64,000 nt of DNA from an uncultured candidatus Porisulfidus sp. (lineage in GTDB: Bacteria; Pseudomonadota; Gammaproteobacteria; Poriferisulfidales; Oxydemutatoraceae): assembly GCA_965215125.1 (NCBI GenBank), contig OZ244052.1:64001-128000 (forward strand), given 5' to 3'. This document shows positions 41,336-64,000 of the stretch, in pieces (position 1 is the stretch's first letter; each line of letters opens with the position of its first letter). The notes below the pieces were generated by a model. That model saw nothing but the letters and a program-made list of their open reading frames with translations. It did not search any database and was not told the origin of the DNA. A program made the position numbers and the translations under genes.

Positions 41336-41346
41336 AATATTGCGCC

Positions 41347-42477: not shown

Positions 42478-42517
42478 CGATATGTAGTCGGGGCAATTTG
42501 TATGCGTGCGATATAGC

Positions 42518-43633
42518 CTAGACGGGCAATGTACCTCTACTTATATCGAATAAATCGAGTTGCGCCGAGTCTTTCGCCGGGGGTTGAAACTGTGAGCAGT
42601 CCAATTCAACACGAGAACTAAAACCGATACGGCGATACGCTATCTTAAAACGTTGAGCGAGCATATCGGCATACCATCCCTTCCCTTTCATGCGCGACTT
42701 GAAGGACGATTGGTATAGTTTGCCGTCATGGCAATCTTTTAGGCGGTTCAGTATACGTTGTGCGCGCTCGGGATAGTGTTGTTCCAGCCATTCCTTGAAT
42801 AGGGTTTTTAGTTCGTGCGGTAAGCGTAGCAGGATATAGCCTGCGTATATGGCACCTGCGTTGCGGGCTGATTCGAGTATGTGTTCCATTTCGTGATCGT
42901 TTAGAAACGGTATCATCGGTGCAGCAATCACCCCGGTAGGAATACCTGCCGTCGACAATGCTTCTATGGTTTTCAACCGCTCGTCGGGTATAGAAGTACG
43001 CGGTTCCATGCGCCGCGACAACGTGCGATCCAAGGTCGTAACCGAGACCCATACATCAACCAACCCTAAGTGTGACATTTCCGACAATAAATCTAGGTCG
43101 CGCCGTATCAATGTAGATTTGGTGATTAACGAAACCGGATGGCGGCTTCGGTGTAACACCTCCAGTATACCTCGGCTTAATTCGAGTTTGCGCTCGGCCG
43201 GCTGATAGGCGTCGGTATTAGCTCCCAATACGACGGGACGGCATCTATAACTTTTCTTGGATAGCTCGTGTTCTAGCACGGCAACTGCATCGGGTTTATA
43301 GAATATCTGTGTCTCAAAATCCAAACCCGCGGATAAATCCATATAACTATGGGTGGGGCGCGCAAAACAATAGATACATCCGTGCTCACAACCGCGGTAC
43401 GGATTAATCGTGCGGTCGGAGCTAATATCGGGGGAAGTATTATAGTTAATCAAACTACGGATGGGTGTAGCGTGCAGTATGGTTTGCGGTTTGCTTTCGT
43501 CTTCTGCATGCGCGCACCAGTCGTCTGCTACCGCTTCGCTATGTGTTTCGGAAAAACGAGAGCAATGCCGACTCAATGCCCCTCGCCCGCGTCGATAATG
43601 AATACGAGCGGAATGTTGTTTTATATCTCCCAT
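42518..43633 (-). CDS. PA0069 family radical SAM protein
   Basis: INPYRGCEHGCIYCFARPTH, NTDAYQP.E, LLRLPHE. Confidence 0.93.
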   Translation of the reverse strand: MGDIKQHSARIHYRRGRGALSRHCSRFSETHSEAVADDWCAHAEDESKPQTILHATPIRSLINYNTSPDISSDRTINPYRGCEHGCIYCFARPTHSYMDLSAGLDFETQIFYKPDAVAVLEHELSKKSYRCRPVVLGANTDAYQPAERKLELSRGILEVLHRSRHPVSLITKSTLIRRDLDLLSEMSHLGLVDVWVSVTTLDRTLSRRMEPRTSIPDERLKTIEALSTAGIPTGVIAAPMIPFLNDHEMEHILESARNAGAIYAGYILLRLPHELKTLFKEWLEQHYPERAQRILNRLKDCHDGKLYQSSFKSRMKGKGWYADMLAQRFKIAYRRIGFSSRVELDCSQFQPPAKDSAQLDLFDISRGTLPV

Positions 43634-43723
43634 ATTGATTTAAGGTATCATGAAAGGTTCCGCCACAATCAATGCGACGAAACCTTCAATACCATGAATA
43701 GGATTATCTATAACATGATTCTC

Positions 43724-45404: not shown

Positions 45405-48400
45405 CTACTGCAGAGGACCTTCCAAAAAGACTTTTGCTCTGATTAAAATAGCTCTGATGATGCGTGCGAGCGCGCTGCGTCTAGAATCCAGTTCTTCTTC
45501 CGCTTCGTCTATTTCCTCCGTCGCATTCTCGGGATTGGCATCGACCGGATCGTTATTCGCCAAGTCTCGCAAGCTCGTACCCGCACGACCCAGAGTGAAA
45601 CCAACCGTCGGATTGCTATCGTTTCGGGAAATCCGCACATCGGTATGATCGATCTCAAAGCCGCCATCGGTTATCGTATCTGTCGCCGTACTGTTCGGAA
45701 ACATCACCGAACCGTCTTCGAGTATTTGTAGTAAGGTATACGAATTTATATCATTGAGGCCTCGCACCTGTTCACCGTTGGCTACCGTTACCAGAAACTG
45801 CATATTATAGATATTACTATCCTTAGCGGTTTCGGTAGCTTTACGCCCTTTAGCGTTTACCGCAATCCTCGGTGGTTCGGTATCTCGGCGTGCTATCGCC
45901 GTGACGGTTGTGTCTATTTCTACGCCTAAGGCTATAGGTTCACCTTGTCTATCAGTAGTTGGATTGCCGTAAATATCCACCAATCCGGCATTGCGAGCCA
46001 GAGTAAACCCTGCAGTACGCTGAGTTTGATTTTCTACATCGTTAAATCTAACTCTATAGTTAAGCATCGCCTCGGTAGCCGAGGAATTAGAAGTGATGCT
46101 TTTGTTACGAATGAAAGTCGTTAAGTCCAATGCGTTACCGGCGGTCGGTTTATGGATCAACTTATACGAATCCAGTATTCCCAACCCGGTTATTGCTTCA
46201 TCGGATTCGGATTCCACTCTGAAGTTCATAGTATACTCATTGCCGTCCAATAAGTTCGGTTCGGCTATCCCCACCGCACTGACGATGAGTCTTGCAAACG
46301 TTCGCGGTATTACGGTTTTTGCCCTATCGTTGGGATCCAGCGGTTCGCCTATCATCACCATTCCGGTAGTGCCGACCACAACCGGTGCATTGGCAAAATA
46401 ATCGCATAATCTGCATCGATCTTCGTATTGGTCGGCGTTTAAGTCGTTGGGTGCACGACCCAGTGTAAAATTCTTTGTTTGCGCAATCTCTTCGGGACTT
46501 AGATATACTCCGTTATACGAAAGCATTGCGTTGATAGTCCCCGAACGATAGGATCGCGTGCCGTAATTTCTTACAACTTCAAATTCATCCGTCATAGTTT
46601 GACGCAGTAATTGGTAGGATCTGAGGTTATTGTGCAGCGGCACGTCAACCGACTCCCCGTCTACTATTTTTTTGTAGTCTAGATCGAATCCCAATCGGTA
46701 ATAACCGCCCGGCAACGCATTCCGACCTCCGTCGACGGGGATAACTTCCTGCGCCCTCACTTCAACGAACGGTGGATTTGTATCCCTCACCGCCAACGCG
46801 GAATCTCTGTCGTCAAAGGGTTGGTTGATCGTTAAACTTTGCGTGCTACCGAAAGGCACGGCGTCGTTATTCGCTAAATCGCGTATCGCAGACGCACCGC
46901 CGTAAGCCAATGTGAAACCCGAAGTCTCCTGCGCCTCGTCTTGACTTAAATGAAACGGTACCACATTGATAGAACGCATATTATTTAATTGTCTCGTGGT
47001 TGTTACTCCGATCCGAGGCTCTGCTACGGGTATATAGTTGCCGTTTTTGAGCTTGCGCAATATCGTATAGTTCCTGCTACTATTCCATCCCGGCCTGAGC
47101 GTTTCCAAAGGCAACGTGCTTGCTGCGAAAGATAGTACGAAACCGTCGATATTTGCACCGTTTACGGTTACCGCAACTTCTATTTCCGGCGGTGTCGTAT
47201 CCCGCATCGCTATGGCTGCAGTGCTCGGATCTATACGCGCATCGTCGGCTATAAGATTGCCCAATCTGTCCAACGGTTTGATCGTGGCTATTTGCAGTTT
47301 ATCGGCAGCGCGCCCCAAAGCAAAGCCTGCGGTGGCTCGGGTTATGGCGAGTGCCGTTGTGCCGATATCTTCGCCGAATGTCACCGTGTATTTAACTTTA
47401 GCTTCGGTATTACCCGAGGAAATCATCTCCACGGTATTTGATTCTATATACGGAGATAAGTCGTCTACGGCATCGGCATCGGGTGTCGGTATATGGAGCA
47501 ATACATAAGAACTTGTGCTACCGATGTCCGCTATCGCCTCGCCGGTCTCCGACCGCACTCTGAAAACCATGCTGTATTTGTTACCGTTATCAAGATCCGG
47601 GTATGCTCTGATGTTATCCGCTACGAGATTGTCTCTGACAAGCGGGTTTTGCGTATCGACTATCGCTTCGACGTTGATTTGTAGCGGTCTGTCTATCTTT
47701 GCTATCGCATCACTGCTTGCATCCAATCTATCCTCGCGAGCCCTATCGACAATCGGAGGAATATCTCCTTTCTCCAAGTTAGCACGACGCCCGAGTGTAA
47801 AACCTATAGTCTTAATTAACTGTGCCGTGCTCAGCGAGGTGTTAAAACTCACGCTTGCTAGAGCAACTTCCCCTTCGGCGAGTACCAATCCCGATGTATT
47901 CACACTGATAGATGCCGTTATCGTCGTGTGCGTGCCTTCATCGTCGATATGCAGTAGTTTATAAGAATCCGGCTGATCAAAGCCACCGACCATTTCGTCG
48001 CTCGAAACTCTAAAACTTCCTCCGTATTTAAGCCGATTATCCGAGAAAGGAACGGCTTTACCGTTTGCTCTCACCCTGATAATCGGATTTGGGGTATCGG
48101 TAGTCGGTACCGAGGCTTCTGCGTCTAAGCGTGAGTCTATGCGTTCGTTAATCTCAACCGTGCTATCGTCGGCAGGATCAACCAAAGGACTGCCCACCAA
48201 GTCGGTCAACCTTGCCTTACGACCTAAAGCAAAACTATGTTTGCTGGTGGTATCGGGATCGCTAACGGCGAAATATATCGTCGCACTTTGCAGATTGTTG
48301 AAGTTCGCACTACTAATATCGATACTTGCATCGTTTAATACGACAACCGGCGTACTCGGCATTGCAGTATCGGTTCTTTGCGGCACTCGCAATAGCACAT

Positions 48401-51400: not shown

Positions 51401-54400
51401 AGTCGTCCACACTAAAGTATATCGCTACATCGTTCAGACTATTGAGGTCTGCACTACCGACGCTTATACTCGCATTCTGCAATACCACCACCGGCGTACT
51501 CGGTATCGTGGCATCGGTTCTTTGCGGTACCCGTAGTAGTACATAAGATTGACTACTCTCTATACCGTCTATGCCATTGACATCGGTGTCATTAAAATTG
51601 CCGGTGACATTAAAACTGCCACGATACGCGGTGCCGCTTTTGATGATTGCACCATTCGGTACTACCGTGAGCGACGGGCTTTCGCGTTCTATCGCAAATA
51701 ATGCTTGTGCGCTTGCATCCAACGGCAACGGTGGTGTTGTCGTCACTTCGGTAGGTGTCGTGCCGCCTATGCTCACGACCGGGTCGTTACTTGCAAGGTC
51801 GCGTAATCTATCGTCGGCACTGCGCCCCAGCGTAAAGCCCTCGGTGTTCAGGGCTTCGTCGATGGATAATCCCGATATATCCGTATAGCGTACTATGACC
51901 GTTCTAGTTGTTACTACCGTTATCTCTTCCGCCAGTCTGCCCGACATCGGCTCGTATGTATCGCGACCTTGAAGTTTGCGCAACAAACTATACGATCCAC
52001 TCTGCCTCAAATCCGAAAACTGCGTTGCCGGCACATCCGACGGTGCGGCCACCCTAAATGCCATCGTATAACCGCTCGCCGCTATCTCAAGATCACCCTC
52101 CCTCGCTACCGTATAGCTCGGCGACTCGGTATCTCTCACCGCAACCGCTTCATCGCGGGAATCCAAACGCTCGCCACGTTCAATCTCGTCTTCGGTATTC
52201 ACCGGGTCAACCGGATAATTGCTCACAAAATCCAGCAAATTGTCGCGCCGCGCCAGTGTGAAACCCATAGTCTCCATAACTTCGTCGCTACGCTCGAAGC
52301 GCGTGCTAAAACTAATTGTCGCCGACGCATCGGACACCGCATCCACCGCTATCCGTGCCGTTCGGGTACTCGGCGCACTACCATCACTCGGAATGTGCCA
52401 CAGCCAATACGAAGCGTCATCACCCAGTCCCAAAATACCGTTTGAACCCGATAGACCATCGTCAACTGTCGTATTCGCCGTCACCTCGAATGTTCCGCGA
52501 TACACCAACGGGTCGTTCTCGTCGGGCATTACACCCTGCGCTACAACACCGATGCTCGGGTGCGTTCGGTTGGTCTCAACAAATGCTTCGTCGCTGTCGT
52601 CAAATAGACGATCGGCACCTATGGTAATCGGGATGTTATAGGCAAGGTCGCGCACACCCCCATTATTACCCAGTGTGAAACCTACCGTCTCGCGCGCCTC
52701 GGCTTCGCTTAAACGAATATTGGTAAATACGGTATAGCTGGACGCTTCACCCGTTATACTAAACTCATTAGGATTAGGAACTATGGCATAGCCATCTCCG
52801 GCAAGTTTGCGTAACAAATTAAAAGATCGTGGGCGTATTATAGTATCGTCCAGGAGTTCATCGGCTTCTAACCGAAACCACATGCCATAGCCATTGACAA
52901 TCCCTCTATTGTTTGATGTGGTAATTGTTGGCTTAAAATTGGGATCTATAGATAGCGATATTGTCGGAGCTTGCGTATCTCTACGAGCGATTGCCTCGGC
53001 TGCAGTATCCAACTCGTCTCCGATATCAACCGCAGGCGCATTACCGTAGATATCGACAAAATTAGCGTTTGTGCCGCGAGCTAGGGTAAAGCCTCGGATG
53101 CGTCGTACTGTCTCCACGCTGTCAAGTGTGACAGTATAAGTCAGTGTCGTCGCATCTCCATTACGACTCAACTCGGTCTCGGATGTTCGTAGTATCACAT
53201 GGGTTATTGACGATGCCGACACCGGTAAATTTTCGTCTATGGGCTTCGCAATCACTCGATAAGAACTGCTATCCGCTATTCCCAAAACCTCGCGGTTTGC
53301 CCGTACCGCAAATTCCATCCCATAGCTATTAGGTGTTATTAAATCCGGAACCGCCTCGTATTCGTAGATTGATACAAAACTAGGACGGGGGTCCACATCG
53401 CTTTGCCGGTCAATCGCCCGTACCGTGAATACTAGCGGAACATTGTTACTCAGTGTTATCTCGTCTCTCAGTGCCGTCTGATAGTCTTCAACTATCTTAA
53501 AGTCCGCGCCCAGCACCGCATTACGCCTAAATTCCAGAGATATCGGTAACGATGCTTGCTCGACACGCCCCTCGTCGATCACCACGATGAGTGTTGTATT
53601 TTCATCGTTGAGGTCAACACTAACGATTGTAGGTGTGATCGCCGGTTTGTCCGCCGGTGCGCAAATGCCGTTGCTATCGGTCAAGCATAAGTTTTCTTTG
53701 TTTACGGTATCGGGGTGGAGTGCCTTGCTAAAACCGATTTCCCATGTGGATTCACCCATTTCATTTTTACCCGTATAAGCCGTGCGTCTCACTTCGGTGA
53801 CATACGGTGCATCGGCATCGTGCGCCAATGCTGCAACGAAGTTACCGTCTGCCAATTCAACATTGTCCACATCTCTGACCATACCGGTGGCGGTACTGAC
53901 CAACCTTAATATACCGTTGCTCACTGCCGATTCAAATCTAAGATTCACATAAGGTTCATTAACCCGATGCGTAGCGGTTGATATTTTGACCGCTTCGCCG
54001 ACACCGTCGATGATGAAGTTAGCTGCAGTTAGCGATGTCGGTATGGTCGCATCCTCGGAAGCGTACACAGCGACACCTTTGGAAAACTTAAGTCGCACAC
54101 CTTTGCCGTCGTCGTGGCGGGCATAATCCTCCACCCAAGTCTTGCCGTCCAATCTGAAACCGCGTAAATCGTTGTCGGCAATACCGAATACCGTGCGATT
54201 TAGCGTACTGGCGTCTCCGTCGCCGGCAATCCAAACCTGATTCTCCGCCCATAATCTGCCGGAAAACGCCAAGCCTGCATCGGCACCCGTGCTACCCTCG
54301 TTTGCATCCAGAGTTCCGTTGCCGTCGGCATCGTAGACGATTTGGCAACTGAATTCTACAAAGTCCTGCCATTCGCTATTGATCGTTGAAAAAGAACCGC

Positions 54401-54995
54401 TAGTGGCTTCCGTAGAAGTGAAATCGGTAGCCTCGGCAAATAGACTCAATAGAGAAGGCGAAGTATCCCTGAAAGTGAATACATAATCTTGGGGGTCGGA
54501 AAAAATACCACCTTTGGTATAGGTGCATTGTCCGGAATTCGTTGCGGTGTCGGTATCGTTGTTATAAAAAGCCGGTGTATTGAGGTTTGCGCCGAATGCC
54601 TCAACATTATAATCTATAGCCACACCACCGACGCTGTACGGCAACGCCACTCCGGTTTTCCGCACCTGAACCACGAATTCCAAGCGATCGTCGCCGGTAT
54701 CGCCGGGAGTACCGTTATCGTCGATGCGTAGACGTTCGGTATCAAACCGCATGTACACCACACCGTTGACATTCGGCATACAGTCGCCGGCATTATTGCC
54801 ACCGCCGATGCTACATGTTTGTGAAAAAGGCTCTGTCCCCGTTATGAAGCGACTTTGCGTTATTTGGTACTGTGCGTAAGTGTCGCTACCGACTGCCAGC
54901 ATCAATAATGTACAGACAAAGAAGTGTATCTTTGATAATGCAATTCTGTCTGTTAGCTTTCTAATAATATATTTAATGCCGGTTGCCACATACAC
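45405..54995 (-). CDS. Giant secreted repeat protein 1 (3196 aa, ~18 beta-rich modules, C-terminal KVFLEGP tag)
   Basis: AGGAGG RBS before GTG; signal-like FFVCTLLMLAVGSDTYAQ; recurring SYxLL / FTLGR / LxDxxxNxP / LD..A motifs. Confidence 0.9.
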   Translation of the reverse strand: MYVATGIKYIIRKLTDRIALSKIHFFVCTLLMLAVGSDTYAQYQITQSRFITGTEPFSQTCSIGGGNNAGDCMPNVNGVVYMRFDTERLRIDDNGTPGDTGDDRLEFVVQVRKTGVALPYSVGGVAIDYNVEAFGANLNTPAFYNNDTDTATNSGQCTYTKGGIFSDPQDYVFTFRDTSPSLLSLFAEATDFTSTEATSGSFSTINSEWQDFVEFSCQIVYDADGNGTLDANEGSTGADAGLAFSGRLWAENQVWIAGDGDASTLNRTVFGIADNDLRGFRLDGKTWVEDYARHDDGKGVRLKFSKGVAVYASEDATIPTSLTAANFIIDGVGEAVKISTATHRVNEPYVNLRFESAVSNGILRLVSTATGMVRDVDNVELADGNFVAALAHDADAPYVTEVRRTAYTGKNEMGESTWEIGFSKALHPDTVNKENLCLTDSNGICAPADKPAITPTIVSVDLNDENTTLIVVIDEGRVEQASLPISLEFRRNAVLGADFKIVEDYQTALRDEITLSNNVPLVFTVRAIDRQSDVDPRPSFVSIYEYEAVPDLITPNSYGMEFAVRANREVLGIADSSSYRVIAKPIDENLPVSASSITHVILRTSETELSRNGDATTLTYTVTLDSVETVRRIRGFTLARGTNANFVDIYGNAPAVDIGDELDTAAEAIARRDTQAPTISLSIDPNFKPTITTSNNRGIVNGYGMWFRLEADELLDDTIIRPRSFNLLRKLAGDGYAIVPNPNEFSITGEASSYTVFTNIRLSEAEARETVGFTLGNNGGVRDLAYNIPITIGADRLFDDSDEAFVETNRTHPSIGVVAQGVMPDENDPLVYRGTFEVTANTTVDDGLSGSNGILGLGDDASYWLWHIPSDGSAPSTRTARIAVDAVSDASATISFSTRFERSDEVMETMGFTLARRDNLLDFVSNYPVDPVNTEDEIERGERLDSRDEAVAVRDTESPSYTVAREGDLEIAASGYTMAFRVAAPSDVPATQFSDLRQSGSYSLLRKLQGRDTYEPMSGRLAEEITVVTTRTVIVRYTDISGLSIDEALNTEGFTLGRSADDRLRDLASNDPVVSIGGTTPTEVTTTPPLPLDASAQALFAIERESPSLTVVPNGAIIKSGTAYRGSFNVTGNFNDTDVNGIDGIESSQSYVLLRVPQRTDATIPSTPVVVLQNASISVGSADLNSLNDVAIYFSVDDSEATSKHRFSLGRKDRLSDLVGNPLVDPMTGEVVTTNSRIDSRVSAEAGIPADNTPNPIISVVAINGKAAPTNNPLVYGGSFEVSVINDKDVSGIAHAGSYNLLRIARDGVHTITTATAMIRVNDATTADVSRRMATVVFSTTLTATGLGQTYGFTLGRRANLEADGMPPLVDTNRSDRLDVAAAAVAVLDSSLQITADAIVDTSKALAQFPPFNQSDGPKAYPEVNFDDNTVNGNRYDMIFEVRSLNRAAIPEIGSTDSYVLLHVPTTGTEINLSEYISANTVEMVSADQARARVRYTVEFGSADDEDAVALTQRTAGFVLGRAAGRLQRSPTELPLNVAAIAIADDARINPNDTAIAKRDTTPPKIAVTVAGSRLGSGGIDINFILQTDSEEYLQPQWNDENDFVLLRRLSTPSWDAVTDYGRSITIFGDIGFSRHFSIFGYRLSENDALDTEGFTLGYNGRSTLRDLSNNDVSQANEDGTINPLQRDRPIDSGDSAFLIRDMNPPFIEVNANSLTLGSAQRDTISYNIVFELASKKLDDDMQEINTRVHGLSSPESYQLLREIEEGNYEIVTSDTYVARGEHLSDYRAGMTYENVGLSVPEAQQTLSFTLSRASNNPDDVNDCPLCDYSSNAPVVAGTTRTATAGMPLDRSETAEAKIEDKTGELITVSAIDEAVPDSSNTNIYTGSFEVRSGNPVRGLSDARSYTLLRLPLVGSDGIGEATETTATLMLSGGSATTTLSRITFRVDLGSIAITQRTYGFILGRARASTENNCVLCDSFGNLPVNRDGTMILGGDPLDTTAMAIVRRDIEPPRIRVTPIDEFVGIQPNRYTMRFRLTASSDVSDAVGSELRALSTYRLLRKLNTDSSYRPVSAVPSQVISPSGDIELIYNDVLPLTIEEISETESFTLGLAVAGRLRDKSGNDPVVSVGGASVTVDPPSPLDESTTAHLAIRRVGNPSIAVTYDRDFNFLTKKGTNYSGTFGLSGNRSIDGITDAESYVLLRVPQRTDTAMPSTPVVVLNDASIDISSANFNNLQSATIYFAVSDPDTTSKHSFALGRKARLTDLVGSPLVDPADDSTVEINERIDSRLDAEASVPTTDTPNPIIRVRANGKAVPFSDNRLKYGGSFRVSSDEMVGGFDQPDSYKLLHIDDEGTHTTITASISVNTSGLVLAEGEVALASVSFNTSLSTAQLIKTIGFTLGRRANLEKGDIPPIVDRAREDRLDASSDAIAKIDRPLQINVEAIVDTQNPLVRDNLVADNIRAYPDLDNGNKYSMVFRVRSETGEAIADIGSTSSYVLLHIPTPDADAVDDLSPYIESNTVEMISSGNTEAKVKYTVTFGEDIGTTALAITRATAGFALGRAADKLQIATIKPLDRLGNLIADDARIDPSTAAIAMRDTTPPEIEVAVTVNGANIDGFVLSFAASTLPLETLRPGWNSSRNYTILRKLKNGNYIPVAEPRIGVTTTRQLNNMRSINVVPFHLSQDEAQETSGFTLAYGGASAIRDLANNDAVPFGSTQSLTINQPFDDRDSALAVRDTNPPFVEVRAQEVIPVDGGRNALPGGYYRLGFDLDYKKIVDGESVDVPLHNNLRSYQLLRQTMTDEFEVVRNYGTRSYRSGTINAMLSYNGVYLSPEEIAQTKNFTLGRAPNDLNADQYEDRCRLCDYFANAPVVVGTTGMVMIGEPLDPNDRAKTVIPRTFARLIVSAVGIAEPNLLDGNEYTMNFRVESESDEAITGLGILDSYKLIHKPTAGNALDLTTFIRNKSITSNSSATEAMLNYRVRFNDVENQTQRTAGFTLARNAGLVDIYGNPTTDRQGEPIALGVEIDTTVTAIARRDTEPPRIAVNAKGRKATETAKDSNIYNMQFLVTVANGEQVRGLNDINSYTLLQILEDGSVMFPNSTATDTITDGGFEIDHTDVRISRNDSNPTVGFTLGRAGTSLRDLANNDPVDANPENATEEIDEAEEELDSRRSALARIIRAILIRAKVFLEGPLQ
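51602..53390. repeat. ~1.8-kb near-identical segment shared by the two giant genes, copy 1
   Basis: Aligns with 62212-64000 at offset 10610. Confidence 0.95.
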
Positions 54996-55092
54996 GATTA
55001 GTCCCTCCTAGAAATGCTACCGATATATGGAGCATGACATCATATATACAAATTTGACTTTGTATGAGTCGGGGTACATTGACGGATAGCCT

Positions 55093-55917
55093 TTAGGGGA
55101 CTTGGCTACTTTGAGTTAAATTATTGGCGATGATATCGCTATAATCGGCAGGTGTTACGATACTACTAAAGTTGGTATCGCCGGCGTGATACGCCGAGAT
55201 ACCGATACTGCCGGCAGCCCCGACTGTGTAGTCGGTTATGTTTATTACACCGTTGCGGTCTACATCGCCTCCGTATAACACATGAATATCGTTATCTTTA
55301 CCTTTTAGTGCCGAAGCACCGTCGGCGGCAAGTGCACTGCCGGCAGCACTAAAATCATGACTATAGATATCGGCATTTCTATTCGCATCCGCCGTTCCGG
55401 TGATATTGGTTGCCGAGATAACATCAAGATGGTTTCGGTGGCGAACTACCAAATAAATATCCTCATCGTCCGCTTCCTCCAGCTGTACAAATTCTACATC
55501 GGGGCAGTTAGCTTCGGTTGTCTCAAGTCCCACTGCCGCACAAAGCAATGTCGGATCTTGAATAATCTGCTCGGCGTATCGGGCTGCATCTACCACACGT
55601 CCGTTGCTCAATAAAAATGCCGGCTTGCGAGCAACGACAGTCGTCGCCGCACTTGCCTCATCGCCGGCAGAAGTAGACCTCAATTCAAGTAATACCCAAT
55701 CGACAACACCTTCGGGCACCGCTACCACCTCAATACTCCGACACGATATCGGGCTCTCCGAGTTAATCGTGTAATTACCGTCGCAATAAGGATCTTGTAG
55801 CGGGACCTCAATATCGGTGACCATCCTATCTATCGTTTGTGCACCGATGGCACCGGATAGTAGTACGAGTACCGTCGGTATATAACTTAATCTAATCATT
55901 TTCCTGTTTGCTTTCAT
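55093..55917 (-). CDS. Secreted protein with VDWVLLELR/HRNHL domain and paired dockerin-like Ca-binding loops
   Basis: GAGGA RBS 7 nt before ATG 55917; signal peptide MKANRKMIRLSYIPTVLVLLSGAIGA; GDVDRNGVINITDY and GDTNFSSIVTPADY; ends SQVP. Confidence 0.85.
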   Translation of the reverse strand: MKANRKMIRLSYIPTVLVLLSGAIGAQTIDRMVTDIEVPLQDPYCDGNYTINSESPISCRSIEVVAVPEGVVDWVLLELRSTSAGDEASAATTVVARKPAFLLSNGRVVDAARYAEQIIQDPTLLCAAVGLETTEANCPDVEFVQLEEADDEDIYLVVRHRNHLDVISATNITGTADANRNADIYSHDFSAAGSALAADGASALKGKDNDIHVLYGGDVDRNGVINITDYTVGAAGSIGISAYHAGDTNFSSIVTPADYSDIIANNLTQSSQVP

Positions 55918-55936
55918 CATTTCATCCTCATATAAT

Positions 55937-58900
55937 TTAACGGAACGGTCCCTCAAGGAACAACTTCACTCTCAGTAGCATGCCTCTGACAAGGCCGGCG
56001 ATTGCATCGAGTCTAGAATCCAGTTGTTCACGGTTATCGTCTATGATCTCCATGCTATTTTCGGGGTTGGCATCAACCGGATCGTTATTCGCCAAGTCTC
56101 GCAAACCGGTGCCTGCACGACCCAAAGTAAAGCCGAGCGTCGGGTTTAACGAGTTTTCGGAAATCTCTATGTTATCGTAAGCGATAGTCACACCGCTATC
56201 TATAGGTGTAAGCGTAGCCGTACTAACGATAAGTTGCGGAGAACCGGTTTCGAGTATCTGTAACAGCGTATACGAGTCCGAATTGTCAATGCCTCGCACC
56301 TGCTCGCCGCCGGCAACCGTCACCGTAAAGCGCATGCGGTAACGATTGGTATTTATATCGTCGCGTATTGCCCCGCCGTCGGCAGTGACGATAATTGCCG
56401 GCGGCACGGTATCTCTGCGCGCAATCGCCGTAGAAGTCGTGTCTATCTCTGCCCCCATACCGATCGCTTCGCCTTGCCTATTCATTGCTAGGTTGCCGAG
56501 CATATCGCTCAAACCTTCATTCGCCGCCAGTGCAAACCCTGCGGTGCGTTGGGTTTGCCTTTCCGTATTATTGAATCTTATCGTATAGCCGAGAGTCGCC
56601 TCATCGTTGTCATCGTTTATGATCAGACTACTTGCTCGGATGAAATTATTCAAAACCAAAGCCGTGCCGGTAGTCGGTTTATGGACCAGTCTATACGAGG
56701 TTAATATACCCAGATTGCCACTGATAGGCTGGTCGGATTGTACCACGAAGTTCATCGTATATTCATCACCGTTGTCGGGATTCGGTGTTGCTTCGCTCGC
56801 TGTCACCATCAGAGTCGGTGCAGAAACCGCATCTGCCATGTCTATAGTTGCTACCGCCGCATCACCACGATCGAGTGGCTTAAAGCCGTCGGTCGGCGTC
56901 GTTAGTGTGCCTACGATGGTCTCGGTGGTGCCGGCAACAAACGGGGCATTACTCGCATAATCGCATAGCGGGCAACCGTTCGGGTCATCGGGGTCGCTAA
57001 GCGCACGGGTCAGAGTAAAGCCTGTGATGTTTTCAATTTCGCTCACCGGTACCTGCACATTACCGAAGTATACGGTCGCTCGAGTCGTCGAGACGCTGGT
57101 TGCACTGGAATTTTGAACATTCTGCACCGCAACCAATCCGCCGTCTTCCAATACTCGCAATAATTGATAAGATGTAGCAGAGTCCAAGCCTCTCACATCG
57201 GTTGCATCGACTTTTAGCCCTCCGTCCCATTGCTTTGCGGCAACATCAAAAGTGATATCGTACGCTATCGTATCGGAGCGCACCGTAACGACATTGACGG
57301 GTGATGCGGTCACCTCTATGAACGGTGGGTTTTTATCTGCAATTGTCACCAAAGCGGTGGGAATGATATTTAGAGGTTGGCCTTGCGCAATAGTACTTCC
57401 GATGTCTTCAGTGTCTTGTCGTAATACGTTATTGTTGGATGGGCCGCGAAACAGTACCGACGAACCGTTATAGCCTACCGTGAAGCCTACAGTCTCTCGT
57501 GCTTCGTTTTCACTCAGACGCAAAGAAGAAATCATCACGTCTAAGTCTTCTCCTATTGGATATAGAGGATTGTAGTTCACTTCCGTAGGCTCGCTATACG
57601 AAACCGGATTCGTATTCAAGCTGCGTAATAATCCAATATCCCTTATACTGAAAACACCATTTTGCATTACCAGATTGAAGCTCATATTAAAACCATTAAC
57701 TCCTGCGAAGGCTTCGGTCGGATCAGGATATACCTCTATTTCCGGCATGACCGTATTTCGTGCAGCTATTGCCGAACTTTGCGGATTTATACGCATGCCG
57801 TCTTCTATAGAATCACCCTCACCGTTAAGCGGCAGTGCATCATTCTCTAATTTGCCGGCAGCACGACCCAACACAAAGCCTGCGGTGCGTTGAGTCAGAT
57901 TGACGGTCGCCTCCTCGTCGTCGGCAGCACCGAAGCTTACCGTGTATTTAACTCTAACATGCGTATCGGTAGTGATCGTTTCTACGGTATGCGCGGTTAT
58001 ATATTCGGATAAGTCTATTGCGTTATCCTCGGTCGTCGGTACATGGAGGAGTACATAAGAACTTGTGCTAGCGATATCCGGTACCACTTCACCGTTGAGC
58101 GAGCGCACTTCGAATATCATGCTGTATTGATTGCCATTCAAAAAGCCGGTACTGAGGTTGGCTTCGGGGTATGCTTTGGGATCGGGAACACCACTATAAA
58201 ATGGTGCCTGATTGAAAATATCTGCACTTTCGTCTATAACCGCTTCGGCAGTGATTTGCAACAATTTATCTACTTCGGCTATCGCATCGGCACTTACATC
58301 CAGTCTGCCTTCCGATCCAAGTTGCGGCGGATTGTTTGATGCGTCGGTTAAATTAGCTCGGCGGCCAAGCGTAAAGCCGATAGTTTCATTAACCTCCGCC
58401 AGTGCAGTCAGTGTGGTGGCAAAAGCGACACTTACCTGTAGCTCCGATACCGAGTTCACGGTAATTGTCACCGCCACCTCGGTCGTAGCACCGTCGGTCG
58501 TGAGGCGCAATAACTTATACGATGCTTGATCGTCCAATCCGGTAACCGATTTGTCGCTAGAAACATCAAAACCGCCTTCATACACCAGACGATCATTTAC
58601 GCGGGGGGTTGCTTTGCCGATTGCTTCCACGGTGATAATCGGATTGTCGGTATCAACATTCGGCACGGCAGACGCTGCGGATGTTCTTGAGTCTATGCGC
58701 TCATTAATATCGATCGGGTTACCGGTGTCGGCAAAATCAACCGGAGGATTACCTGCCAAGTCGGTCAACCCGGCTTTGCGCCCTAGGGTGAAACTATGGG
58801 CATTGGTGGCAACGGAATCTTCTACATTAAATTGTATCGTCGCACTTCGTAAATTATTGAAGTCGGCACTGCCGACACTGATGCTTGCATCGGACAATAC

Positions 58901-61900
58901 TACGTCCTGCTCACCGGACAGAACCCGCAACAACACATAAGAGGTACTACTTTCTATGCCGTCTATGCCTTCGAGGGCGGTGACATCGAAACTGCCGATA
59001 TAATTATTGCCATTTTTGCTTAGCGAGTTGGCTGTCACCGTGATTGCCGGACTCGTTCTTTCCACCGCAAGGTGTGCGATGACACTGTCATCCAACGGAG
59101 ACGGTGGGTCTACGGTGACCGGTGCGCCGCCTACCGACATCACCGGATCATTGCCCGAATTGTCTCGTAGCCGTCCCGCTATAGCGAGACCCAGCGTAAA
59201 GGATTCGGTCTCGCTTATCTGCTCTATAGACAACGGCGGCACCGTATAACTTAACTCTATGTTGCCGCCGGCAGAGATCGCTTGCTGCGATGCCGATACC
59301 GGAAGATAACTGTTATCGCCAAGTTTACGCAGCAGCCGGTAGCTACTAGACCGTCGCGCTTCCGAGGCCGTCGTGCTCGATACGTCCGCCGGCGGATCCA
59401 CTCTAAATTTCATCGTATAACCATCGGGGCGTATATCGAGGGAGTCTATCGGTGTTACCGTGAAATGCGGCGACACGATATCTCTGCGCACAATCGCGGT
59501 TACCGTGGTATTTAGAGGATCACCATAAGCTATTACATCGCCGTTCGGGTTGCGCGGTGGATTACTCAAAATATCGCACAAAATACAATCATCTCTAGAA
59601 GCGTTGATGATCGGGGCGCGGCCCAAGATAAAGCCGTAGGTTTGCCGTGCGACTTCCGGCGCAAGCTCTACACCGAAATCAACCGTAACCATTAATTCTC
59701 TACTCCTAAAACTTCTCGATATCGCCAAATAGACAAAAGGATTAGCATTGGGGTTATGGATCTGATAGTCCGCTGCCGGCAGTGCCGACAAGGTTGCGGT
59801 CGTCCCGCCGATTCCGTCTATCGCTACAGGCACTCCGGCACTGCCGTCTTCTTCTAACGGTACACGCAATAGAATATAAGAGGTCGGTTCGTGTAATCTA
59901 CCACCCCCATCTATATTATTGATAATAAACTCGCTACTTCTAACGTCAAATTGCCCGGTATAGATATAAGGGTTGCGTTCATCGGGGCGTGCTTCTCCTC
60001 TCGCCCGTAGTGTGATGGTCGGACTCATTTTATCCGATACTCTAATCTCTGCGCTTTCGCGAGGATCCAGTGGTTCATTGTTTGCCACCGTTTTGGTAGT
60101 GCCGACTGCCACCGGGGCATTGCCCGAATAATCGCATAACGGACAATCGTTCGGATTATTAGCATCGTGTGCACGACGACCTAAAGCGAAACCGAATGTT
60201 TCTTGTTCCTCCGCTATGGTTAGGTTTACATCTTGATATGTTATGCGTGCCTGAGTGGTCGAAATACTCTCAATTATTATACTTCTAGAAAATTCATTAT
60301 GTGGTTCAAAGCTACCGTCTTCGAGAATACGCAATAACTGATAGGGGCCTTGAAGATTTGTTGAACCATCAAGCGCAGATCTCGTACCTAAACCGTGTAC
60401 GAGTGCGTCGACTTCTTTGTCATCTACCAGTGTCTTCGCGGTCATAGTAAAAACAAGTTGAGCTCCGTCAAGCACATCACCTGCCAATCCTCCTGTCACT
60501 TCTATGAACGGCGGGTTGGTGTCTCTGAATGTTACTGCGTCATCTCTGATATCAAAAGGTTGATCTGTTGTGATCGTTTGTGTGGTGGTGCCACCTTGAT
60601 ATACGTCGTTGTTGGACAGATCGCGTAGCGTGGATGCGCCGGAATATCCCAGCGTGAAGCCGACAGTGTCTCGTGTTTCGTTTTCACTCAAACGAAAAGG
60701 ACTAGAAGTGCCTACTGACAGATTATTACTTATTAAAGTGATTAAAGATAAAAATGTATTCACTCTCGCAATAGAACTATAGGCACCCGTATTCAGCTTA
60801 CGGAATATATTATGACTTTCAAACTGTTGCCATTGCGGTTTGAGTGATTCACCGGACTCGGTGCGGGCGTTAAAGTTTACTCTGAAACCATTTTGACCTA
60901 CTACAAGATTACCATCCACCACGACCGTCGGTGATTGCGTATCTCGTGCGGCTATTGCAGCCGGGTTCGGGTTTATACGAGCATTATCGGCTATAGGATT
61001 ACCATCGCTATCCAACGGTTGCGCATCATCCTGTAGTTTGCCCGTTGCACGACCCAGCACAAAACCGGCAGTGCGTTGGGTCAGAGAGACGGCAGCGTCG
61101 GCGGTGTCGGCACCGAACTCTACCGTGTATCGGACCCTCGCTCGGGTTTGATCGAAAGAAACCATCTCTACGCTATTCGCAACGATATAATCCGCCAAGT
61201 TTATTACCTCATTATCATCTGTAGGCACATGAAGTAATACATAAGAACTTGTGCTACCGATTCCCGGTATCGCCGTACCGTTAAGCGAGCGTACTTCAAA
61301 GAGCATACTGTAGCGATTGCCGTTGACATCGGTATCGTTGGCATCGTTAACTTTGGGATAAGCCTTAGGACCGTCGGGTTGATTGAACGGGATGAGACGG
61401 GAAAGATAGTGATTTATATCAGTAATGGCTTCGGCAGTGATTTGCAACGGTCTATCCACTAAGGCAACCGCATCCCCGCTTATGTCCAGTCTGTCGCGAC
61501 GCTCGGCATCTACCACCGCCGATATGTTGCTACTGTTTTTCAAGTTGTCGCGACGACCGAGTGTGAAACCGTAGGTTTGCTCCAGACTTACCACAGTCAG
61601 TGTGGTGGAGAACATAACCGTTGCCGTTGATCCCAAAACATCGGCGGTCGTTGCTTCGTTCACTTGTATCACCGTCATCGTCGTTATTGTATGTTCACCG
61701 TCTCTGGCGATGCGCAATAGATTATAAGAATCGGCATAGCCTATGCCGAGCACATCCTCATTTGCAGTAACTGTAAATGTTCCGCGATATACCAACGGGT
61801 TACCGACATCGGCAACGGCGTTGCCGTCTGCGTCCACCGTAATAATCGGTGCGCCGGTATCGGTTGCAGGTATTGTAGCTTCTGCGGTCGCACGCGAGTC

Positions 61901-64000
61901 TATACGGCTATTTATCGTTACCGCCTCGCTCGTCACCGGATCCACCAACGGATTACCCACCAAATCGGTCAAGCTATCTATACGACCTAGGGTATATACT
62001 TGGGTAGTGGCAGCATCAACATCGGGGTCGTTCACATTAAAGCTGATCGTCGCACTTTGCAAGGTAGTGAGGTCTACGCTACCGATATCGATTTGCGCAC
62101 CCGCCAATACGACGACCGGAGTGCCGGGCGGGTCTTCGGAATTCGTCCGTTGCGGTGCTCGCAACAACACATAAGAGTCACTACTTTCTATGCCTTCTAT
62201 GCCTTCACCGGCGGTGACATTAAAACTGCCACGATACGCGGTGCCGCTTTTGATGATTGCACCATTCGGTACTACCGTGAGCGACGGGCTTTCGCGTTCT
62301 ATCGCAAATAATGCTTGTGCGTTTGCATCCAACGGCAACGGTGGCGTTGTCGTCACTTCGGTAGGTGTCGTGCCGCCTATGCTTACGACCGGGTCGTTAC
62401 TTGCAAGGTCGCGTAATCTATCGTCGGCACTGCGCCCCAGCGTAAAGCCTTCGGTGTTCAGGGCTTCGTCAATGGATAATCTCGATATATCCGTATAGCG
62501 TACTATGACCGTTCTAGTTGTTACTACCGTTATCTCTTCCGCCAGTCTGCCCGACATCGGCTCGTATGTATCGCGACCTTGAAGTTTGCGCAACAAGCTA
62601 TACGATCCACTCTGCCTCAAATCCGAAAACTGCGTTGCCGGCACATCCGACGGTGCGGCCACCCTAAATGCCATCGTATAACCGCTCACCGCTATCTCAA
62701 GATCACCCTCCCTCGCTACCGTATAGCTCGGCGACTCGGTATCTCTCACCGCAACCGCTTCATCGCGGGAATCCAAACGCTCGCCACGTTCAATCTCGTC
62801 TTCGGTATTCACCGGGTCAACCGGATAATTGCTCACAAAATCCAGCAAATTGTCGCGCCGCGCCAGTGTGAAACCCATAGTCTCCATAACTTCGTCGCTA
62901 CGCTCGAAGCGCGTGCTAAAACTAATTGTCGCCGACGCATCGGACACCGCATCCACCGCTATCCGTGCCGTTCGGGTACTCGGCGCACTACCATCACTCG
63001 GAATGTGCCACAGCCAATACGAAGCGTCATCACCCAGTCCCAAAATACCGTTTGAACCCGATAGACCATCGTCAACCGTCGTATTCGCCGTCACCTCGAA
63101 TGTTCCGCGATACACCAACGGGTCGTTCTCGTCGGGCATTACACCCTGCGCTACAACACCGATGCTCGGGTGCGTTCGGTTGGTCTCAACAAGTGCTTCG
63201 TCGCTGTCGTCAAATAGGCGATCGGCACCTATGGTAATCGGGATGTTATAGGCAAGGTCGCGCACACCCCCATTATTACCCAGTGTGAAACCTACCGTCT
63301 CGCGCGCCTCGGCTTCGCTTAAACGAATATTGGTAAATACGGTATAGCTGGACGCTTCACCCGTTATACTAAACTCATTAGGATTAGGAACTATGGCATA
63401 GCCACCTCCGGCAAGTTTGCGTAACAATCTCCAAGATTGTGGGCGTATTACAGTATTGTCCAGGAGTTCATCGGCTTCTAACCGAAACCATATGCCATAG
63501 CCATTGACAATCCCTCTATTGTTTGATGTGGTAATTGTTGGCTTAAAATTGGGATCTATAGATAGCGATATTGTCGGAGCTTGCGTATCTCTACGAGCGA
63601 TTGCCTCGGCTGCGGTATCCAACTCGTCTCCGATATCAACCGCAGGCGCATTACCGTAGATATCGACAAAATTAGCGTTTGTGCCGCGAGCTAGGGTAAA
63701 GCCTCGGATGCGTCGTACTGTCTCCACGCTGTCAAGTGTGACAGTATAAGTCAGTGTCGTCGCATCTCCATTACGACTCAACTCGGTCTCGGATGTTCGT
63801 AGTATCACATGAGTTATTGACGATGCCGACACCGGTAAATTTTCGTCTATGGGCTTCGCAATCACTCGATAAGAACTGCTATCCGCTATTCCCAAAACCT
63901 CGCGGTTTGCCCGTACCGCAAATTCCATCCCGTAGCTATTAGGTGTTATTAAATCCGGAACCGCCTCGTATTCGTAGATTGATACAAAACTAGGACGGGG
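55937..64000 (-). CDS. Giant repeat protein 2 (>2680 aa, 5' end beyond window, C-terminal KLFLEGP tag)
   Basis: Frame stays open to the window end; same 18-module order as giant protein 1. Confidence 0.9.
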   Translation of the reverse strand, partial: PRPSFVSIYEYEAVPDLITPNSYGMEFAVRANREVLGIADSSSYRVIAKPIDENLPVSASSITHVILRTSETELSRNGDATTLTYTVTLDSVETVRRIRGFTLARGTNANFVDIYGNAPAVDIGDELDTAAEAIARRDTQAPTISLSIDPNFKPTITTSNNRGIVNGYGIWFRLEADELLDNTVIRPQSWRLLRKLAGGGYAIVPNPNEFSITGEASSYTVFTNIRLSEAEARETVGFTLGNNGGVRDLAYNIPITIGADRLFDDSDEALVETNRTHPSIGVVAQGVMPDENDPLVYRGTFEVTANTTVDDGLSGSNGILGLGDDASYWLWHIPSDGSAPSTRTARIAVDAVSDASATISFSTRFERSDEVMETMGFTLARRDNLLDFVSNYPVDPVNTEDEIERGERLDSRDEAVAVRDTESPSYTVAREGDLEIAVSGYTMAFRVAAPSDVPATQFSDLRQSGSYSLLRKLQGRDTYEPMSGRLAEEITVVTTRTVIVRYTDISRLSIDEALNTEGFTLGRSADDRLRDLASNDPVVSIGGTTPTEVTTTPPLPLDANAQALFAIERESPSLTVVPNGAIIKSGTAYRGSFNVTAGEGIEGIESSDSYVLLRAPQRTNSEDPPGTPVVVLAGAQIDIGSVDLTTLQSATISFNVNDPDVDAATTQVYTLGRIDSLTDLVGNPLVDPVTSEAVTINSRIDSRATAEATIPATDTGAPIITVDADGNAVADVGNPLVYRGTFTVTANEDVLGIGYADSYNLLRIARDGEHTITTMTVIQVNEATTADVLGSTATVMFSTTLTVVSLEQTYGFTLGRRDNLKNSSNISAVVDAERRDRLDISGDAVALVDRPLQITAEAITDINHYLSRLIPFNQPDGPKAYPKVNDANDTDVNGNRYSMLFEVRSLNGTAIPGIGSTSSYVLLHVPTDDNEVINLADYIVANSVEMVSFDQTRARVRYTVEFGADTADAAVSLTQRTAGFVLGRATGKLQDDAQPLDSDGNPIADNARINPNPAAIAARDTQSPTVVVDGNLVVGQNGFRVNFNARTESGESLKPQWQQFESHNIFRKLNTGAYSSIARVNTFLSLITLISNNLSVGTSSPFRLSENETRDTVGFTLGYSGASTLRDLSNNDVYQGGTTTQTITTDQPFDIRDDAVTFRDTNPPFIEVTGGLAGDVLDGAQLVFTMTAKTLVDDKEVDALVHGLGTRSALDGSTNLQGPYQLLRILEDGSFEPHNEFSRSIIIESISTTQARITYQDVNLTIAEEQETFGFALGRRAHDANNPNDCPLCDYSGNAPVAVGTTKTVANNEPLDPRESAEIRVSDKMSPTITLRARGEARPDERNPYIYTGQFDVRSSEFIINNIDGGGRLHEPTSYILLRVPLEEDGSAGVPVAIDGIGGTTATLSALPAADYQIHNPNANPFVYLAISRSFRSRELMVTVDFGVELAPEVARQTYGFILGRAPIINASRDDCILCDILSNPPRNPNGDVIAYGDPLNTTVTAIVRRDIVSPHFTVTPIDSLDIRPDGYTMKFRVDPPADVSSTTASEARRSSSYRLLRKLGDNSYLPVSASQQAISAGGNIELSYTVPPLSIEQISETESFTLGLAIAGRLRDNSGNDPVMSVGGAPVTVDPPSPLDDSVIAHLAVERTSPAITVTANSLSKNGNNYIGSFDVTALEGIDGIESSTSYVLLRVLSGEQDVVLSDASISVGSADFNNLRSATIQFNVEDSVATNAHSFTLGRKAGLTDLAGNPPVDFADTGNPIDINERIDSRTSAASAVPNVDTDNPIITVEAIGKATPRVNDRLVYEGGFDVSSDKSVTGLDDQASYKLLRLTTDGATTEVAVTITVNSVSELQVSVAFATTLTALAEVNETIGFTLGRRANLTDASNNPPQLGSEGRLDVSADAIAEVDKLLQITAEAVIDESADIFNQAPFYSGVPDPKAYPEANLSTGFLNGNQYSMIFEVRSLNGEVVPDIASTSSYVLLHVPTTEDNAIDLSEYITAHTVETITTDTHVRVKYTVSFGAADDEEATVNLTQRTAGFVLGRAAGKLENDALPLNGEGDSIEDGMRINPQSSAIAARNTVMPEIEVYPDPTEAFAGVNGFNMSFNLVMQNGVFSIRDIGLLRSLNTNPVSYSEPTEVNYNPLYPIGEDLDVMISSLRLSENEARETVGFTVGYNGSSVLFRGPSNNNVLRQDTEDIGSTIAQGQPLNIIPTALVTIADKNPPFIEVTASPVNVVTVRSDTIAYDITFDVAAKQWDGGLKVDATDVRGLDSATSYQLLRVLEDGGLVAVQNVQNSSATSVSTTRATVYFGNVQVPVSEIENITGFTLTRALSDPDDPNGCPLCDYASNAPFVAGTTETIVGTLTTPTDGFKPLDRGDAAVATIDMADAVSAPTLMVTASEATPNPDNGDEYTMNFVVQSDQPISGNLGILTSYRLVHKPTTGTALVLNNFIRASSLIINDDNDEATLGYTIRFNNTERQTQRTAGFALAANEGLSDMLGNLAMNRQGEAIGMGAEIDTTSTAIARRDTVPPAIIVTADGGAIRDDINTNRYRMRFTVTVAGGEQVRGIDNSDSYTLLQILETGSPQLIVSTATLTPIDSGVTIAYDNIEISENSLNPTLGFTLGRAGTGLRDLANNDPVDANPENSMEIIDDNREQLDSRLDAIAGLVRGMLLRVKLFLEGPFR
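62212..64000. repeat. ~1.8-kb near-identical segment shared by the two giant genes, copy 2 (continues off window)
   Basis: Aligns with 51602-53390. Confidence 0.95.

Follow-up and report, generated by a model that had tools for sequence, protein, structure and literature searches.

In a 64,000-nucleotide stretch of the genome of an uncultured Candidatus Porisulfidus sp. (contig OZ244052.1, positions 64,001 to 128,000 of the forward strand), two giant secreted proteins end in the same short strand-like tag, and a small secreted protein encoded between them resembles a larger domain from which that strand is missing. We refer to this whole stretch as the window and give positions in it unless they are marked as genome positions. 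By combining sequence comparison, structure prediction, gene order and genome distribution, on which all results below are based, we find that these proteins are best explained as parts of a cohesin–dockerin display system in which the X-module of an X-module–dockerin (XDoc) dyad is split between two kinds of gene. The core of this reading, that the tag of the giants binds the small protein (the adaptor) in trans, has in our estimate a probability of roughly 0.6, and we hold the full chain from tag through adaptor and cohesin to a cell anchor with less confidence than that.

All three genes lie on the minus strand, in the order giant 2, adaptor and giant 1, with the following features (aa, amino acids).

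45405..54995, minus strand: giant 1, 3196 aa, with a Sec signal peptide, a cohesin-like N-terminal domain, a long body and a C-terminal strand tag.
54870..54995, minus strand: signal-peptide-like N-terminus of giant 1, residues 1–42, ending in LLMLAVGSDTYA and followed by QY, from reading the sequence.
54141..54767, minus strand: predicted cohesin-fold domain of giant 1, residues 77–285 approximately, from an AlphaFold2 (AF2) model compared with VIA-align and Foldseek.
45405..45449, minus strand: C-terminal strand tag of giant 1, AILIRAKVFLEGPLQ plus stop, 15.5 bits against the strand profile of Bacteroidota-type domains.
55937..64000, minus strand: giant 2, open at the window edge, with its 3' 2687 codons in the window.
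55937..55981, minus strand: C-terminal strand tag of giant 2, MLLRVKLFLEGPFR plus stop, 16.2 bits.
55093..55920, minus strand: adaptor, 275 aa, XDoc-like but without strand 1 of the X-module, 100% identical to protein P0004.
55840..55920, minus strand: putative signal peptide of the adaptor, residues 1–27, with the likely cleavage at the A–Q junction A27/Q28.
55270..55839, minus strand: X-module-like beta-sandwich remainder of the adaptor, residues 28–217 approximately, from alignments and homology to the model of the contiguous domain.
55096..55269, minus strand: dockerin-like half of the adaptor, residues 218–275 approximately, with two D/N-rich loops, GDVDRNGVINITDY and GDTNFSSIVTPADY, and a terminal SQVP.

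Both giants stop directly after the motif [KR]-x-F-L-E-G-P-x-x, and translation gives ...ILIRAKVFLEGPLQ-stop for giant 1 and ...MLLRVKLFLEGPFR-stop (in a longer reading ...GMLLRVKLFLEGPFR-stop) for giant 2, in agreement with an earlier note on this DNA that had claimed a shared terminal motif. Giant 1 has a GTG start with an AGGAGG box upstream, 97 bases after the open reading frame (ORF) of the adaptor, and its cleavage site was placed by aligning it to 13 homologues in which Q follows the hydrophobic stretch. Giant 2 is its paralogue; the whole gene encodes 3374 aa from a start at genome position 130061, and the same cohesin-like N-terminus lies outside the window. The two are close relatives, the first residues of giant 2 in the window being identical to giant 1 from about residue 560, with long near-identical stretches.

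Read from a TTG, the adaptor ORF covers 55093..55956 and overlaps the stop of giant 2; its likely start is an ATG-ATG at 55920, 17 bases past that stop, with a GAGGA box upstream. The N-terminus is signal-peptide-like (...LLSGAIGA/QT), and neither residue of the junction, A27 or Q28, varies among the 17 adaptors first aligned; in a set of 64, Q28 is invariant and A27 nearly so. The protein carries the motifs PLQDPY, VVDWVLLELR, RKPAFLLSNGRVVD, YLVVRHRNHL, GDVDRNG and a terminal SQVP, and its sandwich remainder holds DPYC, VDWVLLELR, RKPAFLL and RHRNHL together with four conserved cysteines. The small secreted ORF that the same note had placed between the giants, with its own ribosome-binding site, signal peptide and this set of motifs, is therefore present as described, at 275 aa from the likely start. 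No Pfam family was found in giant 1, giant 2 or the adaptor at E values up to 0.1, and NCBIfam gave nothing for the adaptor and a chance-level match only for giant 1.

The parent domain of the adaptor is found among its homologues, of which 76 are of similar length and 15 are longer. All 15 longer ones have, on reading, a strand-like stretch 50–60 residues ahead of DWV, and the full order of the contiguous domain is a ..LKVFLEGP[FY].. strand, M.T.L, LPL.QPY, VDWVLVELR, HRNHL, two D/N-rich dockerin loops and a terminal QVP. The same contiguous domain is encoded in ORFs of 69 loci from Bacteroidota, Ignavibacteriota, Calditrichota, Cloacimonadota and KSB1, mostly at the C-terminus. A profile search of public proteins places 16,816 cluster representatives in this family at E values up to 0.001 and 7,685 at E values up to 1e-30, and in roughly 130 of the 150 representatives listed, as read from the table, the match ends within about 25 residues of the C-terminus. 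Some proteins of the family carry two to five copies of the domain. A contiguous parent domain starting with KVFLEGP, which the earlier note had put forward, is thus real, as the longer homologues and the 69 loci show.

Stand-alone adaptors align with the whole of this domain except its first strand, and their signal peptide ends just ahead of the M.T.I / P.QDPYC stretch. In a held-out test, a strand profile trained on 28 contiguous rows reached the threshold of 5 bits in 39 of 39 held-out contiguous domains (at least 8 bits in 36 of these) and in 7 of 7 fused domains from a genome of the same family as the host (G005, see below), compared to 0 of 64 stand-alone adaptors (maximum 0.7). The adaptors therefore do not carry a complete X-module on one polypeptide, strand 1 being absent by profile, and the adaptor has, judged by its sequence, an immunoglobulin (Ig)-like acceptor fold that lacks one strand. 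As the strand is found by profile in contiguous domains and at the C-termini of the giants and is absent from adaptors, tag and adaptor are, on these profiles, two complementary pieces of one domain, and the proposal that the giants carry the first strand and the adaptor the remainder is upheld.

What kind of domain was divided is suggested by structure prediction. An AF2 model of a contiguous homologue, built from a 56-row alignment, has a predicted local distance difference test (pLDDT) score of 97.6 and places KVFLEGP in strand E6-14. Its top Foldseek matches are X-module–dockerin chains of type II cohesin–dockerin complexes, which taken alone are borderline (E value of 1.2e-3). VIA-align recovers eight XDoc chains with Z scores of 9.3–10.4 (root-mean-square deviation (r.m.s.d.) 3.5–3.8 over 143–150 residues), the next entry having a Z score of 5.4; the XDoc alignments begin at model residue 3–5, so that strand 1 is included. 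The overall XDoc fold, an Ig-like sandwich packed on a dockerin, is thus present in the contiguous homologue on which it was tested, and on these models the parent domain is XDoc-like, an X-module joined to a type II dockerin. Pfam Dockerin_1 matches 11 of 64 adaptors (best E value 3.4e-8) and 8 of 56 contiguous domains, with two D/N-rich loops visible, and no Pfam model matches the beta-sandwich half in the 56 contiguous members and 64 adaptors scanned.

When the mature adaptor (residues 28–275, 64-row alignment) was modelled with the last 40 residues of giant 1 (22-row alignment), the predicted complex had a median ipSAE of 0.89, compared to 0.00 for the best of three controls. Of 80 solved complexes, 58 reach the ipSAE mark used, as do 2 of 110 mismatched pairs, counts that are only rough when alignments are supplied by the user. 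The three runs of the complex share at least 93% of contacts, with a pLDDT of at least 72 for the partner. Tail residues 24–40, within which the tag of giant 1 lies, contact adaptor residues 141–147, 181–191, 212–217, 107–109 and 73–80; the first three segments are, by alignment, strands of the contiguous model, and the tag also contacts inward-facing residues of the adaptor VDWVLLEL. The adaptor itself is predicted with a pLDDT of 85–86 with the tag and of 48 or 64 with unrelated partners. A complex prediction of this kind had been proposed as a check, and it places the tag among the strands of the adaptor, with the binding itself predicted.

The tag is not confined to the two giants of the window. 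The host genome is a single contig of 2,220,706 bases, and we scanned the last 16 residues of its stop-to-stop ORFs with a loose regular expression. Twenty-eight ORFs end in the tag, with only four internal matches in ORFs of at least 100 aa. Other tagged proteins, whose absence would by the earlier note have spoken against its proposal, thus exist. These 28 ORFs, the largest of 15,128 aa, sum to 130,179 aa or 17.6% of the genome, and the tag ends 24 of the 51 ORFs of at least 1000 aa; the untagged ORFs of at least 2000 aa include two with a Gly-rich, transmembrane and basic tail and one antisense shadow ORF. About 14 residues long, the tag is an amphipathic strand with the consensus I/L-R-I/V-R-x-K/R-V-F-L-E-G-P-L-Q, and all 28 ORFs stop 2–6 residues past its E-G (or E-S). 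Its six-codon core occurs in 20 distinct DNA versions that encode 9 peptide versions, and most of the 28 proteins have a Sec-type N-terminus, those read resembling signal peptides that end A/Q.

A strand-only profile of 22 columns, built from the first strand of Bacteroidota-type contiguous domains (all 56 rows of our alignment A2), scores at least 10 bits in 19 of 1325 ORF C-termini of the host genome and in 0 of 1325 random internal 30-mers. Given the count from the regular expression, the share of large ORFs that it covers and this comparison with internal controls, the tag pattern is not due to chance. No NCBIfam sorting-signal model matches the 22 tag tails searched at E values up to 1, the two chance-level matches being to unrelated families.

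The motif is also found in other positions. It follows directly after the signal peptide of a 783-aa ORF that looks like a leucine-rich-repeat protein (..QLQIRVFPEGLLTS.., genome 1225419-1227770, minus strand), and it is internal, at residue 725, in a 972-aa ORF (genome 1072373-1075291, plus strand); a strand tag could in principle act from either end of a protein. Short ORFs of 39–83 aa that end in the tag (genome 1293308-1293499, 2081681-2081899, 1404024-1404092 and 1829835-1829948) appear to be relics of tagged genes that have decayed; one of them contains a TAA within its frame.

Gene order ties the adaptor to the giant that follows it. A whole-genome search finds three adaptors in the host, each directly upstream of a giant (3 of 3). 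Metagenome-assembled genomes of relatives labelled Ca. Porisulfidus or Ca. Oxydemutatoraceae show this order at 11 of 11 loci, one of which has three adaptors in tandem. The two other adaptors of the host genome come after housekeeping genes, not giants, and all 14 downstream giants align in a shared N-terminal domain. The adaptor gene is therefore paired with the cohesin-like giant downstream and not with the giant upstream. The earlier note was right that the ORF sits between the giants, but read it as an appendage downstream of giant 2, missing from giant 1; it is the partner of giant 1, upstream of that gene.

For the shared N-terminal domain, a cohesin fold is predicted from giant 1. The AF2 model of its N-terminus (mab5f76d5694c, 14-row alignment) has a mean pLDDT of 68.5, and cohesin modules make up 37 of the top 39 VIA-align rows, with Z scores of 8.9–11.3. 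The matches span model residues 35–243 and cover whole modules (6kge_A with a Z score of 11.3, r.m.s.d. of 3.0 and 140 of 141 residues aligned), and the best Foldseek match is the type II cohesin dyad 3l8q (E value of 3.7e-6). The beta-sandwich of cohesins is thus recovered at this N-terminus, in a model of that pLDDT. As an XDoc-like adaptor is encoded beside a cohesin-fold domain, predicted fold and gene adjacency together suggest that the two form a dockerin–cohesin pair.

Exactly four giants of the host genome have the cohesin-like N-terminal domain. Three of them, giants 1 and 2 among these, carry the tag at their C-terminus and could be cargo and scaffold at once. The fourth (genome 1505956-1519635, outside the window) has no tag and ends in GGGGG, a hydrophobic, transmembrane stretch and RRRK, and its orthologues in relatives have C-termini of a similar kind. 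The gene order around it is GspC, GspD, GspA, GspB, GspE, rhodanese, adaptor, cohesin giant and rhombosortase, the last of these beginning 459 bases past the stop of the giant and matching TIGR03902 with 135.3–135.6 bits against a cut-off of 84; no exosortase was found in the host genome. Substrates of rhombosortase are exported by type II secretion and then retained at the surface, and by analogy with them this fourth giant would be the root of the assembly, for which reason we call it the anchor giant. We describe its tail as GlyGly-CTERM-like only, since the pattern is visible and NCBIfam has no match for it. A second giant with a Gly-rich, transmembrane and basic tail (genome 1831417-1837641, 2074 aa) does not have the cohesin-like N-terminal domain.

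The genes that follow giant 1 in the window (38084-45073) are an SBP56-family gene, a radical-SAM gene, two ATP-grasp genes, MCH (methenyl-H4MPT cyclohydrolase), a CitG-like gene and Fae (formaldehyde-activating enzyme), a block of C1 / tetrahydromethanopterin genes unrelated to the giants. There is no secretion machinery among them, and the window gives no local clue to what reads the tag.

We surveyed 41 genomes of the order, namely the host genome and 18 relatives in its family (f1) and 22 genomes of families f2–f4. The tag census was made by profile, because a strict DNA pattern misses variants that end in GA or GS, and the genomes are related, so that co-occurrence among them is no statistical test.

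Adaptor profile: 17 of 41 genomes; in f1 the host genome and 16 of 18 relatives; in f2–f4 0 of 22.
Tag profile (E value up to 0.01): 13 of 41 genomes; in f1 the host genome and 12 of 18 relatives; in f2–f4 0 of 22.

Adaptor and tag occur together in 12 genomes. Variants of the tag in other genera end in RFRIRVFLEGALQ-stop, RIRVFLEGAVIP-stop and RLRVRVFLQGALQ-stop, and the peptide is kept across at least four genera. A single tag match in G026 was discounted, as it ends in TGG and not in a stop codon. In G006, many tag matches lie in ORFs of only 50–1000 aa, and on its contig C3 (around 513720-514214) four copies of tag plus stop follow each other at intervals of exactly 156 bases, in mini-ORFs roughly 50 aa long.

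One genome of the same family, G005, has the domain in one piece. Its 27 adaptor-profile matches lie mostly in giant ORFs of 1272–17,496 aa, with no tag-profile matches, and in the seven loci inspected (L104–L110) strand 1 is contiguous with the domain, which stands at the C-terminal end of large frames in six. In L108 the complete domain comes just after the signal peptide of a 687-aa frame. In a quick tree of 31 of the 64 adaptors (alignment A4), 28 of the 56 contiguous domains (A2) and the seven G005 domains, midpoint-rooted for drawing and with support from the Shimodaira–Hasegawa-like approximate likelihood ratio test (SH-aLRT) only, the stand-alone adaptors lie together on one side of a branch with an SH-aLRT of 91, and the G005 domains group separately (100). 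The tree is compatible with a single split event, and does not give its direction, split or fusion. In-frame fusions in relatives, which the earlier note had counted among the findings that would speak against a split, do exist within the family; the split form is nonetheless no artefact, since the adaptor has its own signal peptide, all 11 related loci show the arrangement, as do at least 12 of the 41 genomes, and the stand-alone adaptors form one clade.

Taken together, these observations would fit a system of three components: 28 cargo ORFs (24 of at least 1000 aa) that would keep only strand 1 of the X-module as a C-terminal tag of about 14 residues, a separately secreted adaptor of about 275 aa that would hold the remainder of the sandwich and the dockerin, and, as scaffold, the four giants with the putative cohesin-fold N-terminal domain. 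After export, the tag would insert into the adaptor as its missing strand by donor-strand complementation, as the complex prediction suggests. The dockerin of the adaptor would then dock on the N-terminal cohesin-fold domain of the giant encoded directly downstream, a step to which fold and gene adjacency point. The cohesin giant with the Gly-rich, transmembrane and basic tail, encoded between the type II secretion cluster and the rhombosortase gene, would root the assembly on the cell; both this anchoring route and the cellular site of assembly are what we infer. As the other three cohesin giants end in the tag, giants might also be chained head to tail. In this more speculative extension, which we regard as possible but doubtful, an adaptor on the cohesin of one giant would catch the tag of the next, giving a polymer of megadalton proteins that forms without ATP, as fibres or a mesh, is rooted on the rhombosortase-anchored giant and is decorated by the roughly 24 tagged proteins that have no cohesin.

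Several points weigh against the proposed display system. All of its support is computational. The predicted complex speaks for compatibility and in silico specificity, not for binding, since the model may merely complete a fold known from contiguous homologues or from solved XDoc structures, and the ipSAE calibration was made without user-supplied alignments; that the adaptor is incomplete without the tag is suggested by the missing strand and by the drop in pLDDT with control partners. The adaptor of the window (P0004) does not reach Pfam Dockerin_1, the model of the cohesin domain is only moderately confident (pLDDT 68.5, 14 rows), Pfam Cohesin (PF00963) is found neither in giant 1 at E values up to 0.1 nor in the whole genome at E values up to 1, and the last 44 residues of the anchor giant match no NCBIfam family at E values up to 1. 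The locus is contained in no sequencing run listed as RNA, its DNA being contained in five runs from two studies. The distribution is uneven as well: G008, G012 and G015 have stand-alone adaptors and no tag match at E values up to 0.01, G009 has one weak tag match only (E value of 0.66), and G016, which is 85% complete, has two tag matches and no adaptor. Copy numbers are lopsided, with 3 adaptors and 4 cohesin giants against 28–30 tags in the host genome and 1 adaptor against 137 tag matches in G006.

These imbalances also speak for the main rival explanation. In it, the tag would descend from strand 1 but would have ceased to meet the adaptor, acting by itself as a C-terminal signal for sorting or secretion that other machinery reads (for example type II secretion, an outer-membrane factor or a protease); the adaptors would be stable without strand 1 and merely XDoc-like partners of the cohesin giants. 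Tags far outnumber adaptors in both genomes just named, three genomes have adaptors without detectable tags, the adaptor gene goes with the cohesin giant that follows it and not with tagged genes generally, and every giant N-terminus read has a Sec-type signal, which leaves the outer membrane still to cross. However, the tag fits the strand-1 profile of the contiguous domain, the adaptors miss exactly strand 1 and nothing else, the predicted complex is specific (0.89 compared to 0.00), tags were found only in f1, where the adaptors occur, with none in the 22 genomes of its sister families, and none of the 22 tails matches an NCBIfam sorting signal. On balance, we consider a signal read by other machinery unlikely, while taking it seriously as a competitor.

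The tag could instead be an evolutionary leftover, with the C-terminal domain truncated and strand 1 kept to pack on or cap the last repeat, without binding in trans. A history of truncation is plausible given the fused full-length domains on giants of G005, and decay of some copies is seen in short tag-bearing ORFs of 63 and 72 aa and in another that is interrupted by an internal stop. Yet the 28 ORFs all end within the same few residues of the motif despite unrelated preceding domains, the peptide is kept through synonymous change and across genera, and the same cap would not be expected on different repeat families, so that this explanation appears improbable. Hardly credible is an error of assembly or annotation that makes the adaptor a frameshifted or truncated C-terminus of giant 2. 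The closeness of the two ORFs, 17 bases apart or overlapping by way of the TTG, would allow it, but the adaptor has its own ribosome-binding site and signal peptide, lies in a different frame from giant 2 (as counted from the coordinates) and recurs in the same arrangement in four related loci of about 80% identity (L004–L007); the other two host adaptors follow housekeeping genes, and no adaptor ORF follows any of the remaining 27 tagged ORFs, the genome having three copies only. Stop-codon read-through from giant 2 into the adaptor was rejected, as the frames differ and a signal peptide lies in between.

We therefore favour a split domain whose tag is captured by a shared adaptor through strand complementation, a proposal of the earlier note that the computational tests support, with the binding predicted. 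If it is correct, this would be the first natural cohesin–dockerin system known to us whose docking module is divided between a portable tag of about 14 residues and a catcher that the tagged proteins share, and a Gram-negative symbiont would be seen to combine docking of the cellulosome type with donor-strand complementation. The system would account for the organization on the cell of giants that fill 17.6% of the DNA in a genome of 2.2 Mb, would bear on the adhesion of sponge symbionts to their host or their interaction with it, and could provide an engineering kit of three parts, namely tag, catcher and cohesin. Chained giants, should they exist, would make this a natural genome-wide tag-and-catcher system and a new route of protein sorting to the Gram-negative cell surface. 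The analysis also draws attention to a very large family of XDoc-like C-terminal domains whose sandwich half has no Pfam match in the members scanned.

In titles and the openings of abstracts of the open-access literature, outside which most subscription journals fall, nothing was found on the tag motif or on a split X-module. Within the same scope, work on dockerins and C-terminal domains of Bacteroidetes concerns cellulosomes and the type IX secretion system (T9SS) only, and nothing on these proteins appears under sponge-symbiont cohesins and dockerins, giant proteins or Porisulfidus. As far as these searches reach, cohesin–dockerin docking and donor-strand complementation are each well known, and a split XDoc whose first strand is a portable cargo tag is apparently undescribed.

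The conserved extreme C-terminus on many large secreted proteins of one genome is shared with GlyGly-CTERM, PEP-CTERM and the C-terminal domain signals of T9SS, and for GlyGly-CTERM the likeness extends to a rhombosortase system in the same genome. Unlike these signals, the tag has neither a transmembrane helix nor a basic tail, is only about 14 residues long and has no NCBIfam match. In chaperone–usher pili and the type V pili of Bacteroidota, an Ig-like acceptor lacks one strand, which another polypeptide supplies; in type V pili a C-terminal strand fills the groove left by a missing N-terminal strand, the same topology that we propose for tag and adaptor. Here the fold family is another one, and the strand would be accepted by a shared adaptor where a fibre uses its next subunit. 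The analysis identified no chaperone, usher or processing protease, no search for chaperones or ushers having been made.

SpyTag/SpyCatcher is an engineered pair of a short strand tag and a catcher that consists of the rest of a beta-sandwich. The proposed system resembles it in having a portable tag, carried by many cargo proteins, and a catcher formed by the remaining sandwich, but it is natural and gives no evidence of an isopeptide bond, and the sole CnaB2 entry in the fold list has a Z score of 3.6.

The closest likeness in fold is to the cellulosomes of Clostridia, in which XDoc and type II cohesin join CipA/ScaA to the anchoring scaffoldins SdbA, OlpB and ScaB. The proposed system shares with them the fold of an Ig-like X-module set against a dockerin (Z scores of 9.3–10.4 for the eight chains), whose two loops would also be of the Ca type, and a partner with a predicted cohesin fold (8.9–11.3). 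As in cellulosomes, the cohesin-bearing protein would have a cell-anchoring C-terminus and large proteins would be hung on the surface. In contrast to cellulosomes, the cohesin, like the dockerin of the window adaptor, misses its Pfam model, and the cargo consists of giant repeat proteins with no recognizable enzymes (no Pfam match). The anchor would be GlyGly-CTERM-like, with rhombosortase and type II secretion genes in place of surface-layer homology (SLH) repeats, and the host is a Gram-negative gammaproteobacterial symbiont of sponges. Whereas the cellulosomal X-module is in one piece, the one described here appears to be divided, the cargo carrying strand 1 and a free adaptor the remainder.

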